Shown: positions 58,120 to 64,000, counted from the first letter of the stretch. The stretch: 64,000 bases of DNA from an uncultured Bacilli bacterium (GCA_963722445.1 CAVRMZ010000001.1:7535-71534), one strand, 5' to 3'. Numbers and translations: made by a program. Notes: a model not told the origin generated them from the sequence alone.

Positions 58120-58992
58120 TTAGAAAGCGGCGAGCGAAAGGTTGAGGTTGACGTTTCCGCCCTTGGCGGCATTATCTGCCGTGGAAAGAGTCCCCTCGAT
58201 CCAAGAAGAGACGATGACTTCGACGGTGGTATCACCAGCGATGGTGGCACCAGCGACGGTGGCAATCAATTGGCCGCTGACAGGTCCGTCAACGGCGGAA
58301 TTGACCTGATTGAAGGCGCCGGCGTGGAAGGTTCCTGTGGCCGGAGTCGCAAGCGTATAGCCATCGAAGTTATAAGCCTTGGTACCGGTGGCGGCAGTCG
58401 CAAGGTACTTATAACCGGCGGTAGAATCAGTCGTGTCATATTGCCAAGTGGTCATATTGGCCGGAGTCGTACCGGTGCTCCAAACGGCCACGCGAGTGGC
58501 CTTGGCGGCCGCAACGTCAGCGGTGGAAGAGGTCACGCCGGTAACGGCAGATCCGCTCTCGAGATAGACCGAGAACTGAGCAGTTCCAGAATTGATGAGG
58601 TTTAAGCCAAATTGGACGAAATAAGTTTTTCCAGAAACGTTGGCTATAGAGCTGATACTATTGGCGACGGTCGGCTGGGCGGTTCCATTGTCGGCTTTCC
58701 AAACCGGTTTGAAGAAGGTCTTGCCGTCTCCGGAAATATCGGTGACACCGGTGGTAGCGGCGATCGCGAGAGTGCTCGTGGGGGTAGCACTGGCACCAGT
58801 AATTCCGTTATTGGCTACATCGACATATTGAACTGAAAGATTACCATTATCGGAATAGACGTGGGCGCTCGTCAGACTGACGGTCGCCGTGCGGGTGGTG
58901 GTGAACCAGGCGAAGCCGGCGGTGGTGCCGGCGGCGGCGGTGACGCCGAGCAGCGAGGCTAAACCTAAGACTAACTTTGTTTTATTTTTCAT
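58120..58992 (-). CDS. secreted TasA/camelysin-like protein with SipW-type signal peptide, paralogue B
   Basis: 290 aa from ATG 58992 (RBS AAAGGA). N-terminus MKNKTKLVLGLASLLGVTAAAGTTAGFAWFTTTRTATV resembles the GT-x-A-x-F-(S/T) signal region of TasA/CalY. Thr/Ala/Gly-rich beta-type composition. C-terminal motif SSWIEGTLSTADNAAKGGNVNLNLSLAAF. Confidence 0.65.
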   Translation of the reverse strand: MKNKTKLVLGLASLLGVTAAAGTTAGFAWFTTTRTATVSLTSAHVYSDNGNLSVQYVDVANNGITGASATPTSTLAIAATTGVTDISGDGKTFFKPVWKADNGTAQPTVANSISSIANVSGKTYFVQFGLNLINSGTAQFSVYLESGSAVTGVTSSTADVAAAKATRVAVWSTGTTPANMTTWQYDTTDSTAGYKYLATAATGTKAYNFDGYTLATPATGTFHAGAFNQVNSAVDGPVSGQLIATVAGATIAGDTTVEVIVSSWIEGTLSTADNAAKGGNVNLNLSLAAF

Positions 58993-59020
58993 ATTTTTAT
59001 CCTTTTTTTCTTTTGAAAGA

Positions 59021-59941
59021 TCAATCATAAATAGCAGATAAATTCAAATTAAAACTAACGTTTCCGCCCTTGGCGGCATTGTTAGCCGTGGAAAGAGTTC
59101 CCTCAATCCAAGACGAGATGATGACTTCAGTGCTGCTATTAGCGGCAACGCTAGCGACTAATTGACCATACACAGCAGAACTTTGGAGATCAATGTGGGT
59201 GAAAGCGCCGGCGTGAAAGGTGGCTTTAGCAGGAGTAGACACAGTGCCTACTGCTCCATAAGCAGTGCCGCTGGCCGAAGAAATGTATTTGAAACCAGTG
59301 GTCATATCTTTAGGATCACTAGGATCAGCACTTGGGGTAACCGAATCCGTGCTGTCATACTGCCAAGTGGTCATATTGGCCGGAGTCGTACCGGTGCTCC
59401 AGATGGCGACGCGAGTGGCCTTGGCGGCCGCATCGTTTTTGGCTTGCTGAGCTTGTAGAGACGTATCAGAGCCTGCATTGACGTTAACGCCGACGACGGC
59501 AGAGCCTTCCTCAAGATAGACTTTAAAAGAAGTTTTGCCTGAATTGTAGAGCGCTACGCCGAACTGGACGTAATAGGTCTTGTCCGAAGCGTTGCTGATA
59601 GAACTGATTGAGGTCGCAGCGGTCGGCTGGGCGGTTCCATTGTCGGCTTTCCAAACCGGTTTGAAGAAGGTCTTGCCGTCTCCGGAGATGTCGGTGACGC
59701 CAGTGGTTGCGGCAATCGCAAGGGTGTTTGTCTTTGTCGCGTCATGAGTAATGCCGTTAGAATCAACAGCGGTATAGGCAATCGAGAGATCGCCAAAATC
59801 GCTGTAAACATTGGCGCTCGTCAAACTGACGGTGGCGGTGCGGGTGGTGGTGAACCAGGCGAAGCCGGCGGTGGTGCCGGCCGCGGCGGTGACGCCGAGC
59901 AGCGAGGCTAAACCTAAGACTAACTTTGTTTTATTTTTCAT
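59021..59941 (-). CDS. secreted TasA/camelysin-like protein with SipW-type signal peptide, paralogue A
   Basis: 306 aa. The first 43 residues are identical to paralogue B. Conserved and variable blocks alternate along the sequence. C-terminal motif SSWIEGTLSTANNAAKGGNVSFNLNLSAIYD. Confidence 0.65.
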   Translation of the reverse strand: MKNKTKLVLGLASLLGVTAAAGTTAGFAWFTTTRTATVSLTSANVYSDFGDLSIAYTAVDSNGITHDATKTNTLAIAATTGVTDISGDGKTFFKPVWKADNGTAQPTAATSISSISNASDKTYYVQFGVALYNSGKTSFKVYLEEGSAVVGVNVNAGSDTSLQAQQAKNDAAAKATRVAIWSTGTTPANMTTWQYDSTDSVTPSADPSDPKDMTTGFKYISSASGTAYGAVGTVSTPAKATFHAGAFTHIDLQSSAVYGQLVASVAANSSTEVIISSWIEGTLSTANNAAKGGNVSFNLNLSAIYD

Positions 59942-60095
59942 AAAAAATGAACCTGATACTTTCTAGTGAAAACAGACGTTTCACTTGATTGCAACGGGTT
60001 CTAATGGATTTCGTAACGTCGCTTTTGACGACTATTTGAGCAATGCGCCTAGGAATTCGGCTATTGGGATAGCCTTCATTCCGGAGTGCGAGGAT

Positions 60096-60123
60096 ATTAT
60101 AGCAAGCCCTTTTGAGAGTGCAA
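60096..60123 (-). promoter_or_regulatory. candidate extended -10 promoter for the tandem paralogue operon
   Basis: Minus strand reads TTGCAC, a 16-nt spacer, then TGCTATAAT. It lies about 150 nt upstream of ATG 59941. Confidence 0.5.
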
Positions 60124-62017: not shown

Positions 62018-62106
62018 GACAGTCTTGGGAGGATGGGTTTATTCGAATATTCAAAGCCGCTAACGTCAGTTCGTATAAGGCCAAAGCCCGGATCTTTTGG
62101 TTCGGG

Positions 62107-63147
62107 ATGGCTCTTTTCTCACTCACGCTTTCGGCTTTTGTCACCTCGACTATCGCCTGGTTTGCCGTCTCGGACATCTTGCAGGTCAGGAATATCTCCA
62201 TCGGCTACAACAGCGAGGATTTCCAAATCGGCTTGATGAAAAACGGAACCGTCGATTATTCCTCTGCCATCGATGTGTCGGAAGAAGTGAAACTCACCCC
62301 CGTTTCTTCGATGTACGAATCTGAATGGTATACGGCCAGCGATCTTTTAGACCTTGCGAAGGTGGATGCCACCTTTCCGAAATTCATGTCCTCTTATCCC
62401 GCTTATTCCGATGGGAAGCTTGAGACGCATGAGACGCCTTACGCCGCCTCGGGCTATTACCAGATGGAGCTTTATTTCTCCTCAAAAAAGGATACCTATG
62501 TCTTCTTGGACGCCACGACGAGCTTGACGGCTAATGAGGCCCAAAATAAAGCAATTGCCGCCCAAACGGGGGACGCCCTCAGCGATTTGAACAAAGTGGC
62601 GGATTGCTTGCGGGTCAGCTTCTATGGGGACAAAGGCTATACGATCTATGAGCCAAATGTCGCCTCGAGCAGCGCCACCCCTTTTGCGGGCAGGCTCGAT
62701 GTCCAATACAATGACGGCTATTACGATTATGACGATAGTAACCGCGAAATCCTCTATGGCGATTATAATTACAGGAGTTGTGCATTAGCTTATGATGCGG
62801 CCAATCCTTCATCGCAAGAAGTGCCGACGGTCTCCACGGATGGATTCGACGCCATCACGAAACCAGGGGTGCAGGCGCTCGACGTCGCGAAGAGCACGAA
62901 TCTTGTCATCGCGAACGAGGTGACGTATCCGCTTGGCGCTCTGGCCTTATCCGCGGCCGCTCAGCATCCGCTTCTCTATATCCCAGCGAACGGGGTACGG
63001 CGGATGGTGGTGACGCTATATATCGAAGGCTGGGATCGCGACTGCGTGAATTCGGTCAATGCTGCGGCGTTTTTGGCCAAAATCGTCTTCTCGGGCCGCT
63101 ATGAGCCCGAGAGCGCCTATCAGTCGACTTATCCGTCGGCGTCGTGA
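62107..63147 (+). CDS. secreted/anchored protein of the same family (AWF N-terminal motif, Y-I-E-G C-terminal motif)
   Basis: 346 aa from ATG 62107. N-terminus LFSLTLSAFVTSTIAWFAVSDILQV; C-terminal VVTLYIEGWDRDCVNSVNAAAFLAKIVFSG. The frame stays open upstream to about 62011, so the true start may lie upstream (ATT 62041 is preceded by GGGAGG). Confidence 0.6.
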   Translation: MALFSLTLSAFVTSTIAWFAVSDILQVRNISIGYNSEDFQIGLMKNGTVDYSSAIDVSEEVKLTPVSSMYESEWYTASDLLDLAKVDATFPKFMSSYPAYSDGKLETHETPYAASGYYQMELYFSSKKDTYVFLDATTSLTANEAQNKAIAAQTGDALSDLNKVADCLRVSFYGDKGYTIYEPNVASSSATPFAGRLDVQYNDGYYDYDDSNREILYGDYNYRSCALAYDAANPSSQEVPTVSTDGFDAITKPGVQALDVAKSTNLVIANEVTYPLGALALSAAAQHPLLYIPANGVRRMVVTLYIEGWDRDCVNSVNAAAFLAKIVFSGRYEPESAYQSTYPSAS

Positions 63148-63157
63148 GGAGGGAACC

Positions 63158-64000
63158 ATGGAGCAATACTTCTTCTATTTACAATTAATGCTTGAGAAGT
63201 TCTTCAACTATCTTGGGCTTTGGTTCAAAATGCGTTGGGCGGATCCCTGGGGTCCGGTCCCGAGCGAATTCAGTGACTATGGTTCCGCTTTTAGCTTGTA
63301 TTATGGCGGCTTTGGTTTCTGGGGCTGGTTCTTCTTCATCCTCTTTTTGCTTTTGTTTCTCGCTCTATTAGGCGCCGCTGCCTTTCTTATCGGCTGGCTC
63401 CTCAAGAAATACATCAAGTTCTATAAGTCCGAGATCGACAAGAACAAGCTCGTGAATGAAGTCGAGGCGCTGCAGGTCGAGCTTTATAACAGCACCCAGG
63501 AAAAGAACCGGATTCTGGGTCTTCAGGTCTCATCTTTGGGCCTTAAGCCTTTGGAAACTCCTGGGGCTAACGGAAGCGGAGCCCCAGCCAACGGCGAAAA
63601 CCCCGTCGGGGAGAATACCGTCCGCTTCGCGCGGATGATCGCCGTTGACAAGAAATACGAGGCCATGAACGCCCACATCGAGCTCGCCCCCGAAAATGCG
63701 ACGATTTCGTTACAGGATATCTGCAAGAAATTCCGCCTTTTCTGCTGCTCGCAGCTTAGCCTATATTACACGCCCGAAACGATGATGGCTCTTTTTGCTT
63801 CCATGGGCACCAGCAAGATCATCATTCTCGAAGGCATCTCCGGAACGGGCAAAACCTCGCTTCCCTATGCTTTGGGCCGCTTCTTCCAGAACCCAGCCGT
63901 CATTTGCTCAGTCCAGCCTTCTTGGCGCGACCGCTCCGAATTATTGGGCTATTATAACGATTTCACCCATAAATTCACGGAGACCGAATTCCTGCGCGCC
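63158..64000 (+). CDS. membrane-anchored AAA+ ATPase, McrB/AAA_5-like (3' end outside window)
   Basis: Absent from the ORF track because no stop falls inside the window. ATG 63158 is preceded by GAGGAGGG. A hydrophobic segment FGFWGWFFFILFLLLFLALLGAAAFLIGWLL, a coiled-coil-like KSEIDKNKLVNEVEALQVELYNSTQEKN, a P-loop IIILEGISGTGKTSLPYALG, then VQPSWRDRSELLGYYNDF, which recalls the McrB-type segment after Walker A. Confidence 0.7.
   Translation, partial: MEQYFFYLQLMLEKFFNYLGLWFKMRWADPWGPVPSEFSDYGSAFSLYYGGFGFWGWFFFILFLLLFLALLGAAAFLIGWLLKKYIKFYKSEIDKNKLVNEVEALQVELYNSTQEKNRILGLQVSSLGLKPLETPGANGSGAPANGENPVGENTVRFARMIAVDKKYEAMNAHIELAPENATISLQDICKKFRLFCCSQLSLYYTPETMMALFASMGTSKIIILEGISGTGKTSLPYALGRFFQNPAVICSVQPSWRDRSELLGYYNDFTHKFTETEFLRA

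Follow-up and report, generated by a model that had tools for sequence, protein, structure and literature searches.

We analysed a 64,000-nucleotide (nt) window of DNA from an uncultured Bacilli bacterium (GCA_963722445.1, CAVRMZ010000001.1:7535-71534; positions are counted from its first letter) and examined the gene cluster that runs from position 58120 to the window's end. This cluster encodes four secreted proteins, here called A, B, C and D, and a homologue of McrB-family GTPases with a transmembrane (TM) segment. Profile comparison indicates that A to D are homologous members of one superfamily, and the genes for C, D and the GTPase form a tight operon behind a class I cyclic di-GMP (c-di-GMP) riboswitch aptamer. 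The window holds the 5' two-thirds of a system conserved in Mollicutes-related uncultured gut and rumen Bacilli, and because it ends inside the GTPase gene, the genes past 64000 were inferred from relatives. We read the whole, with a probability of roughly 60%, as a SipW-dependent, TasA-like fibre or matrix system that is probably switched on by c-di-GMP and that uses a repurposed McrBC motor.

Four secreted proteins of one superfamily

The four proteins are encoded in two divergent transcription units. On the minus strand lie paralogue A (58120-58992, 290 amino acids (aa)) and paralogue B (59021-59941, 306 aa), both secreted, beta-rich candidates for the major fibre subunit. A was recognised from its open reading frame (ORF), its signal peptide and its place in the A/B alignment, and B from its ORF, its homologues and an AlphaFold2 (AF2) model; a longer ORF for A, extending to 59028, is probably not used. 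Directly after the stop codon of A, a terminator-like hairpin on the same strand (58078-58099; 9-bp stem with 8 GC pairs, followed by a run of seven T) closes the unit. On the plus strand, C (61100-62017, 305 aa) has a TTG start codon and a Shine-Dalgarno (SD) sequence AGGAG at 61090, and D follows, with 346 aa from an ATG at 62107 to 63147; both are supported by their ORFs and by alignments of their families. These four ORFs had been listed in a preliminary description of the window, and all were found in the translations at the same coordinates, together with the N- and C-terminal strings quoted there.

A and B are 66% identical. A word-indexed search returned 102 homologues of B, and alignments were built from 66 of these 102 matches for the A/B family, from 36 sequences for the D family and from 11 for the C family. 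Compared with HHalign, the A/B and D families align end to end over 278 columns (98.2% probability, E 4.6e-14), and A/B aligns with C over 153 columns in the C-terminal half (90.4%, E 1.4e-6). A second line of evidence comes from another lineage, labelled 'Tenericutes bacterium ADurb.Bin024' (locus L084), in which three tandem A/B genes precede, on the same strand, a single 407-aa gene in the position of C and D (12763-13986). This hybrid matches all three profiles (D, 6e-11; A/B, 4e-7; C, 1e-6). Because of the two profile alignments and the hybrid, we place A to D in one superfamily, as the preliminary description had proposed for its two divergent units. One could instead suppose that the resemblance is compositional or due to chance and that the genes came to lie together by accident. 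Pairwise BLAST among C, D and A/B is indeed insignificant, and C and D match only weakly when their profiles are compared directly (E 7.6e-4). The E-values of the A/B comparisons, the C/D hybrid and the synteny in about 80 genomes nevertheless refute this explanation, and we give it next to no chance.

The superfamily is large and has no Pfam or NCBIfam model. The A/B profile matched 3939 representatives of 50%-identity clusters at E<=1e-3, and the best 150 of the 3939 listed were all close relatives; mean column identity within the A/B family is 24%. Scans of A to D against Pfam (E<=1), NCBIfam and PADLOC gave no match, and the 66 A/B members, scanned singly at E<=10, yielded nothing above noise except two weak matches to TIGR04088 (see below). 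The A/B and D profiles likewise had no match among the Protein Data Bank (PDB) sequences. In the A/B alignment, the invariant residues of B are A27-W28-F29 near the N-terminus and W277-x-E279-G280 near the C-terminus. C has a long basic n-region, a hydrophobic segment ending in I-V-A↓F-L-G (the arrow marks the proposed cleavage site) and the C-terminal motif W-L-E-G-N-D-P-D-C. Its n-region would be cytoplasmic, which makes C a candidate anchor or nucleator, and D is a candidate minor subunit.

Operon, riboswitch and signal peptidase

A scan of one genome per species yielded 80 further loci, mostly from metagenome-assembled genomes labelled as Bacilli, Erysipelotrichaceae, Ca. Enteromonas, Enterosoma, Onthovivens or CAG:288, and gene order was read from hidden Markov model (HMM) or phmmer annotation of the ORFs at each locus. 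The closest relative (L001, a 1.47-Mb contig) has a D protein 80% identical to the one in the window and the same upstream genes. After D it encodes a 518-aa ATPase, a 783-aa DUF2357 protein, a 311-aa protein, a 519-aa EAL protein and a PNP_UDP_1 protein. The order is fixed among the relatives: a gene for a small protein with two TM segments (2-TM), the riboswitch, C, D, the McrB-like GTPase, the DUF2357 protein, the 311-aa protein (a peptidase), the EAL protein and the PNP_UDP_1 protein. It is kept down to 26% identity in D, and also in L084, so that the gene neighbourhood described for the window is conserved in about 80 related species-level genomes. From C to the last gene the median gaps are 8, 13, 10, 2, -4 and -4 nt, and the 2-TM gene lies about 350 nt from C. 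C is the first gene after the riboswitch across the loci; D is present once in 38 loci and twice in 33. One to four A/B copies occur just upstream, on either strand, in 40 of the 43 loci with enough sequence. The EAL protein of the operon has two N-terminal TM segments, and all its catalytic motifs are conserved in 50 orthologues. Its gene overlaps that of the PNP_UDP_1 protein, which resembles methylthioadenosine/S-adenosylhomocysteine nucleosidases (E 1e-20), by 4 nt almost everywhere (15890-18165 in L001, with equivalents in 54 loci).

The aptamer at 60833-60913 on the plus strand is a genuine c-di-GMP-I (GEMM-I) element. It matches Rfam RF01051 over its full length (model positions 1-87) with 60.1 bits against a gathering score of 35 (E 2.9e-9), in agreement with the preliminary description, which had placed a GEMM-I riboswitch and a promoter before C. 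The promoter-like site, TTGACA-17-TAGATT at 60801-60829 (plus strand), is present as described; it is a consensus match only, at 10 of 12 positions, and stands 4 nt before the aptamer. When the related loci were searched with a covariance model built from nine aptamers, 64 of the 69 with sufficient room had an aptamer before C, as did L079, where it abuts the start of the longest ORF. The 3' strand of the aptamer (60900-60911) can pair alternatively with 60933-60946, next to a U-rich tract, and the minimum free energy (MFE) fold of 60895-60975 has -22.9 kcal/mol. In this predicted fold, the alternative hairpin and U-rich tract (60900-60946, plus strand) form a candidate terminator, which suggests an ON switch in which ligand binding prevents termination.

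In relatives, further c-di-GMP-I aptamers lie ahead of other proteins with a T-x-A-W-[FI] signal, among them a 271-aa family and, in L056, an A/B paralogue. They were found at 18335-18423 in L001 (with the gene at 18437-19252), 6213-6303 (minus strand) in L066, 1763-1846 in L036, 3657-3744 (minus strand) in L056, and at about 17.6-18.0 kb in L035, L037, L038 and L044. The SipW-like peptidase may therefore have substrates that together form a c-di-GMP regulon. Enzymes of c-di-GMP turnover adjoin the system in the window, as had been noted: a 1166-aa protein with EAL (Pfam E 1.2e-56) and GGDEF (E 5.4e-36) domains at 53486-56986, with a counterpart at the equivalent position in the close relatives L001-L003, and a 318-aa GGDEF protein at 57069-58025 (E 1.1e-23), both on the plus strand. 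In the literature we found no link between RF39-type Bacilli and c-di-GMP, or between c-di-GMP riboswitches and SipW systems like this one.

By their sequences, A, B and D carry classical n-h-c signal peptides that end in T-x-A↓W-F. The signal peptide of A consists of MKNKTK, a hydrophobic core and T-x-A↓W-F, and the site in D reads T-I-A↓W-F. Across the A/B alignment (n=66), Ala at -1, Trp at +1 and Phe at +2 are found in all 66 sequences, with Thr or Gly at -3 and T-T following, and the residues from +1 to +8 are invariant or nearly so (W-F-T-T-x-x-x-A). D (n=35) has Ala at -1 in 35 of 35, Thr, Ser or Ala at -3, and Trp at +1. C, which had been thought to lack an N-terminal motif, has an equivalent conserved site at the end of its hydrophobic segment, (I/V)-x-A↓F-L-G, with Ile or Val at -3 and Ala or Ser at -1 across its family. 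Other proteins near the operons, 241-999 aa long, also bear a T-x-A-W-[FI] signal. In the HHalign comparison of the A/B profile with TasA (sequence checked against PDB 8AUR), the signal peptide alone aligns, and T-F-A↓W-F falls in register on T-W-A↓A-F, precisely at the known site where SipW cleaves TasA. The suggestion of a SipW/TasA-type signal thus holds for this register; the NCBIfam model of the SipW-cognate signal peptide, TIGR04088, matches 2 of the 66 A/B members, at best with E 0.15.

The start of D was probably misplaced in the preliminary description. The ORF from 62107 to 63147 is present, and its frame is open upstream of the ATG, reading ...YKAKARIFWFG-MALFSL. An ATT at 62041 lies 8 nt after the SD sequence GGGAGG and adds 22 in-frame codons, which encode a basic n-region and are kept in frame in L001; an ATG at 62033 abuts the SD sequence in a different frame. 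Because of the open frame, the spacing and the conserved codons, D probably starts at the non-canonical ATT and would comprise about 368 aa (62041-63147).

The preliminary description had seen no SipW-type peptidase in the window and had proposed to look for one beyond 64000. One was found in the relatives, in about 66 of which its gene is the third after D; the window itself ends earlier. The 311-aa protein of L001 matches the NCBIfam SipW model (E 2.5e-12, 46.8 bits against a cut-off of 190) and a model of archaeal-type type I signal peptidases (E 5.3e-11, 42.6 against a cut-off of 51.85). A profile of 31 orthologues matches human SEC11A (E 8.8e-9) and SEC11C (E 2.9e-8), with V-x-T-D-S-M on VLSGSM, t-H-R-V on VHRV and G-x-N on GDNN of SEC11A. 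Its motifs are T50-D-S52-M53, H121-R122 and G140-x-N142, with the His box replacing Lys; Ser52, His121, Gly140 and Asn142 do not vary among 65 orthologues, and Met53 is invariant as well. These boxes mark the protein as a divergent Ser/His/Asp peptidase of the endoplasmic reticulum (ER)/archaeal/SipW type, integral to the operon. It has N- and C-terminal TM segments and a conserved tail of 45-95 aa, 40% of it Glu and Lys, which is predicted to be cytoplasmic.

The McrB-like GTPase and a proposed fibre mechanism

The P-loop gene that had been reported at the window's end was confirmed as an open frame from 63158 to 64000 on the plus strand, which encodes the N-terminal 281 aa of a McrB-family (AAA_5) GTPase homologue with the Walker A motif GISGTGKT. 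The full-length orthologue in L001 (11055-12611, about 518 aa) matches Pfam AAA_5 (E 3.4e-5), PADLOC PDC-M26A (E 1.8e-38) and E. coli McrB structures (E 4e-6). Its motifs are Walker A GISGTGKTS, Walker B LDEMNLAR and the signature G-T-A-N-N-D-D-S, which aligns on G-L-M-N-T-A-D-R-S and can be read as NxD followed by D or as NxxD. All orthologues have one TM segment at about residues 60-78; in the protein of the window an N-terminal segment of about 55 aa precedes it, and KKYIKFYK and a heptad-like, coiled-coil-like stretch of K, E, L and Q follow. The predicted topology is N-out, with a cytoplasmic coiled coil and GTPase. Pfam did not detect FtsB homology in the N-terminus. With 65% mean column identity, the GTPase is the operon's most conserved protein. 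The earlier term, membrane AAA+ ATPase, is corrected to a McrB-family (AAA_5) GTPase homologue with a McrC-like DUF2357 partner. A pilus or secretion ATPase of the PilB/GspE/VirB11 class was rejected, since the domain matches only AAA_5, AAA_22 and AAA, with McrB among solved structures, and no T2SSE-type domain was found.

The partner protein carries DUF2357, the N-terminal domain of McrC (E 1.9e-9), in a conserved region of about 335 aa. Among 31 aligned orthologues it has no TM segment, no match to a nuclease family or nuclease structure and no conserved D...(D/E)xK motif, and its profile returned only low-complexity matches from the PDB. A Glu/Lys-rich tail of 110-514 aa follows (32% Glu and Lys in the same orthologues). 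The length of this tail varies more than tenfold, and in L042 (9017-15760) and L050 (4599-11594) the DUF2357 proteins reach about 2,250-2,330 aa, against 450-850 aa elsewhere.

The pair could be a defence or stress module of the Type IV restriction kind, related to CoCoNuT systems, that merely sits inside a surface operon and has no role in secretion or assembly. The AAA_5/McrB homology and the McrC N-terminal domain of the partner fit this, as does the best PADLOC match, since PDC-M26A is a candidate defence component, and related NxD-clade systems have been interpreted as defence (Bell et al. 2024, PMC11090510). What speaks for integration instead is that the pair is fixed between D and the peptidase, with gaps of 2-13 nt, in about 80 species-level genomes of several lineages, whereas defence islands are typically variable. 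The GTPase is moreover the best conserved protein of the operon, a TM anchor replaces its DNA-binding N-terminal domain, neither PD-(D/E)xK nor any other nuclease was detected in the partner, and transcription starts from a c-di-GMP riboswitch. We therefore consider a separate defence module very unlikely. An active restriction enzyme was rejected outright, given the undetected nuclease, the TM anchor in place of the DNA-binding domain and the lineage-wide synteny.

The fibre reading would work as follows. At high c-di-GMP, supplied by the neighbouring GGDEF enzymes, the ligand would keep the 3' strand of the aptamer out of the terminator hairpin, and in this ON state C, D, the GTPase, the McrC-like protein, the peptidase and the EAL protein would be transcribed. 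The peptidase would cleave D, as well as A and B, which have their own divergent promoter, after the invariant Ala, and perhaps C. The new N-termini (W-F-T-T-x-R-T-A...), where the proteins are best conserved and least structured on their own, could then serve as donor strands, as in TasA and TapA. Fibres would form by polymerisation of A and B, and D and C would be minor members, nucleators or anchors. Since the EAL enzyme encoded in the operon keeps all its catalytic motifs, it may lower c-di-GMP and provide negative feedback. In the least certain step, the McrB-like GTPase, its McrC-like activator with the Glu/Lys-rich tail and the Glu/Lys-rich tail of the peptidase may form a membrane complex that couples GTP hydrolysis to the processing, extraction or anchoring of subunits.

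Structure models are compatible with beta-rich subunits and leave kinship to TasA undemonstrated. The AF2 model of B (predicted local distance difference test score (pLDDT) 79, predicted template modelling score (pTM) 0.80) is a beta-sandwich with one helix, in which roughly the first 35 residues lack a confident position, and that of D (pLDDT 83, pTM 0.83) is also a beta-sandwich; in both, the conserved post-cleavage segment has low confidence. Sub-significant Foldseek matches comprised generic jelly-rolls (CBM32, APC10, viral capsids), AbpA (7ueg, E 0.11 and 0.37) and CanA (9hdi, 0.8), and a search of the B model against BFVD gave no match at E<=0.001. Against the TasA sequence and a TasA-family profile of five sequences built from Bacillus plasmids, HHalign gave E-values of 0.006-0.14 with probabilities of at most 6%: with the profile, the signal peptide aligned for A/B (E 0.011) and D (E 0.14), and for C the last two strands, with Q-G-G-T-I-A-L-A-M-H-F-V-A on Q-G-D-S-I-A-L-K-M-E-F-Q-A (E 0.0064). 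Such alignments are hints at equivalent positions, and the TasA/camelysin likeness suggested earlier is not demonstrated as homology. The 7-mer AKNDAAA occurs both in B (residues about 165-171) and in B. subtilis TasA, in the single long helix of each; as it is conserved in neither family and not aligned by HHalign, it was rejected as a sign of homology and is probably due to chance. A type IV pilin-like reading and a sortase pilus were also rejected, as there is no class III signal of the form G↓F-T-L-x-E and no LPxTG, respectively.

A number of results weigh against the fibre reading. Peptidase_M73 matched none of A to D (E<=1) and none of the 66 A/B members (E<=10). Foldseek found no PDB structure at E<=0.001 for the B and D models, with TasA outside the top 50, and no significant sequence or fold link joins A to D to TasA, to camelysin, to AbpA or to a filament subunit of known structure. 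Polymerisation of A and B is a proposal, as is any action of the GTPase pair on the secreted proteins. Relatives, the closest with 80% identity in D, and not this organism, are where the genes for the peptidase, the DUF2357 protein, the EAL protein and the nucleosidase were observed, and it may be that the organism has no type I signal peptidase besides the SipW-like enzyme, which would then not be dedicated to A to D. The ON direction is tentative, since a crude scan for a hairpin with the aptamer's 3' strand followed by a T-run flagged 14 of 62 loci. No Rfam family lies upstream of the A/B unit in the window, so its control by c-di-GMP is likewise tentative.

In another explanation, A to D and the other T-x-A-W-F proteins form a non-filamentous coat or adhesin set on a bacterium with a reduced envelope: they would be monomeric, lattice-forming or adhesive, the SipW-type enzyme would be the general signal peptidase of this lineage, with its gene beside those of the substrates it meets in greatest abundance, and c-di-GMP would switch surface composition rather than fibre assembly. 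Besides the undetectable kinship to known polymerising subunits, the size and rapid divergence of the family (3939 representatives, 24% column identity) are as expected for exposed surface antigens, many proteins of differing size carry the same signal near the operon, and the host lineages have a mixed cell-wall status, with walls reduced or absent in part (PMC10868615). However, the near-invariance of residues +1 to +8 exceeds what a peptidase needs, and the same segment is left unplaced by the monomer model. A tandem major pair with minor paralogues and a SipW-type peptidase also mirrors the TasA/TapA and BsaA-D filament systems. On balance we find the coat or adhesin set rather unlikely and prefer a fibre system.

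A bolder version of the fibre reading is possible, with the odds against it: a McrBC-type GTPase repurposed as a membrane motor that, with the SipW-type peptidase, assembles, anchors or tensions donor-strand fibres of an unrecognised superfamily under riboswitch control and EAL feedback. SipW-dependent fibres (TasA, CalY, BsaA) are considered to assemble by themselves in the extracellular space, with no energy supply, and to our knowledge McrBC-type GTPases have no known role outside DNA or RNA restriction. If true, this version would mean that Mollicutes-related Bacilli possess a new class of fibre or pilus machinery that depends on NTP. Across uncultured gut and rumen Bacilli, a comparable set, made up of a peptidase, a major subunit pair and minor paralogues with a common post-cleavage motif, is hard-wired to a nuclease-less McrBC-like GTPase and to c-di-GMP sensing. 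The role of a restriction-type AAA+ GTPase in protein fibre biogenesis becomes testable. The analysis also identifies a large protein superfamily, of thousands of 50%-identity clusters, that has no Pfam model, and ties c-di-GMP signalling, with multiple class I riboswitches, to surface structures in lineages that only metagenomes have revealed.

Several further features were recorded in the window. A terminator-like hairpin lies 3' of the GGDEF gene (58041-58061, hairpin scan). The small 2-TM protein (60284-60667, plus strand; 127 aa with a Glu/Lys-rich C-terminal tail) is outside riboswitch control, its gene is closed by a strong terminator (60687-60712, hairpin scan), and 61 such ORFs occur across the related loci, each upstream of the riboswitch and C. 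Short ORFs of 68 and 83 aa over the riboswitch leader (60720-61137), and the 96-aa gene called in L001 (8583-8873), are probably spurious gene calls. At 46240-48614 a LuxE-like acyl-protein synthetase adjoins a LuxC-like acyl-CoA reductase (Pfam E 5e-43 and 1e-56), a pair unexpected for a small-genome gut bacillus. Rfam identified five tRNA genes (41304-41604, 28335-28406 and 7643-7716), three of them clustered at 41.3-41.6 kb.

Comparison with known systems

The closest functional parallel is the tapA-sipW-tasA operon of B. subtilis, with its B. cereus counterpart sipW-tasA/calY. There, too, an ER/archaeal-type peptidase is encoded with its substrates (here in the relatives), a major subunit and accessory proteins have a common post-cleavage N-terminal motif, the cleavage contexts are in register, and the subunits are beta-sandwiches (here AF2 models). 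The last two strands of C also resemble TasA Q-G-x-S-I-x-L-x-x-x-F-x-A, at a sub-significant level. In TasA, residues 28-38, the first after cleavage, form the donor strand, which likewise has low model confidence, and TapA shares the motif and nucleates the fibre (PMC9674648). Unlike that operon, the system described here has no Peptidase_M73/TasA HMM match or significant fold match and has larger subunits (290-346 aa); it is under a c-di-GMP riboswitch with an EAL enzyme in the operon rather than SinR; the McrB-like GTPase and McrC-like protein stand between subunits and peptidase; and the peptidase has a 45-95 aa Glu/Lys-rich tail.

In C. perfringens, the pellicle-matrix operon sipW-bsaABCRSD similarly joins a SipW homologue, the polymerising secreted BsaA and further secreted proteins, and secretion and polymerisation need SipW (PMC7395162). 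That operon is controlled by a two-component system and temperature, without c-di-GMP, and has no McrBC-like genes. The archaeal bundling pili AbpA/AbpB and other donor-strand filaments also have peptidase-processed subunits of jelly-roll type, an N-terminal donor strand and a TapA-like accessory protein. AbpA (7ueg) and CanA (9hdi) appeared among weak Foldseek matches only (E 0.11-0.8, TM-score <=0.31), and these filaments have no dedicated peptidase or NTPase. Canonical McrBC has the AAA_5 core, Walker A, Walker B LDEMNLAR, the N..D signature and a neighbouring DUF2357 partner in common with the GTPase pair, whereas here a TM anchor takes the place of the DNA-binding N-terminal domain, no nuclease is detectable, and the pair is riboswitch-driven within a secretion operon.

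The gene order had not been recognised as a described system. For the trio of McrB-like GTPase, McrC-like protein and peptidase this has to be revised, as it has been named CoCoPALM (Bell et al. 2024, PMC11090510, eLife 13:RP94800), in one paragraph with analysis deferred; no follow-up was found in the literature. CoCoPALM comprises an NxD-clade GTPase fused to an FtsB-like TM segment and coiled coil, a coiled-coil McrC homologue and a protein of the signal-peptidase family. Correspondingly, we observe a McrB-family GTPase with an N-terminal TM segment and coiled coil, a DUF2357 McrC homologue with a charged extension and a signal-peptidase-family protein as the next gene, and the signature N-N-D-D fits 'NxD followed by D' (also readable as NxxD). 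The paper names no cargo proteins, c-di-GMP riboswitch, EAL link or host lineage, and the cargo family and c-di-GMP control appear not to have been described before. The CoCoPALM class would thereby gain a candidate cargo family, cleavage motif, regulator and host range.

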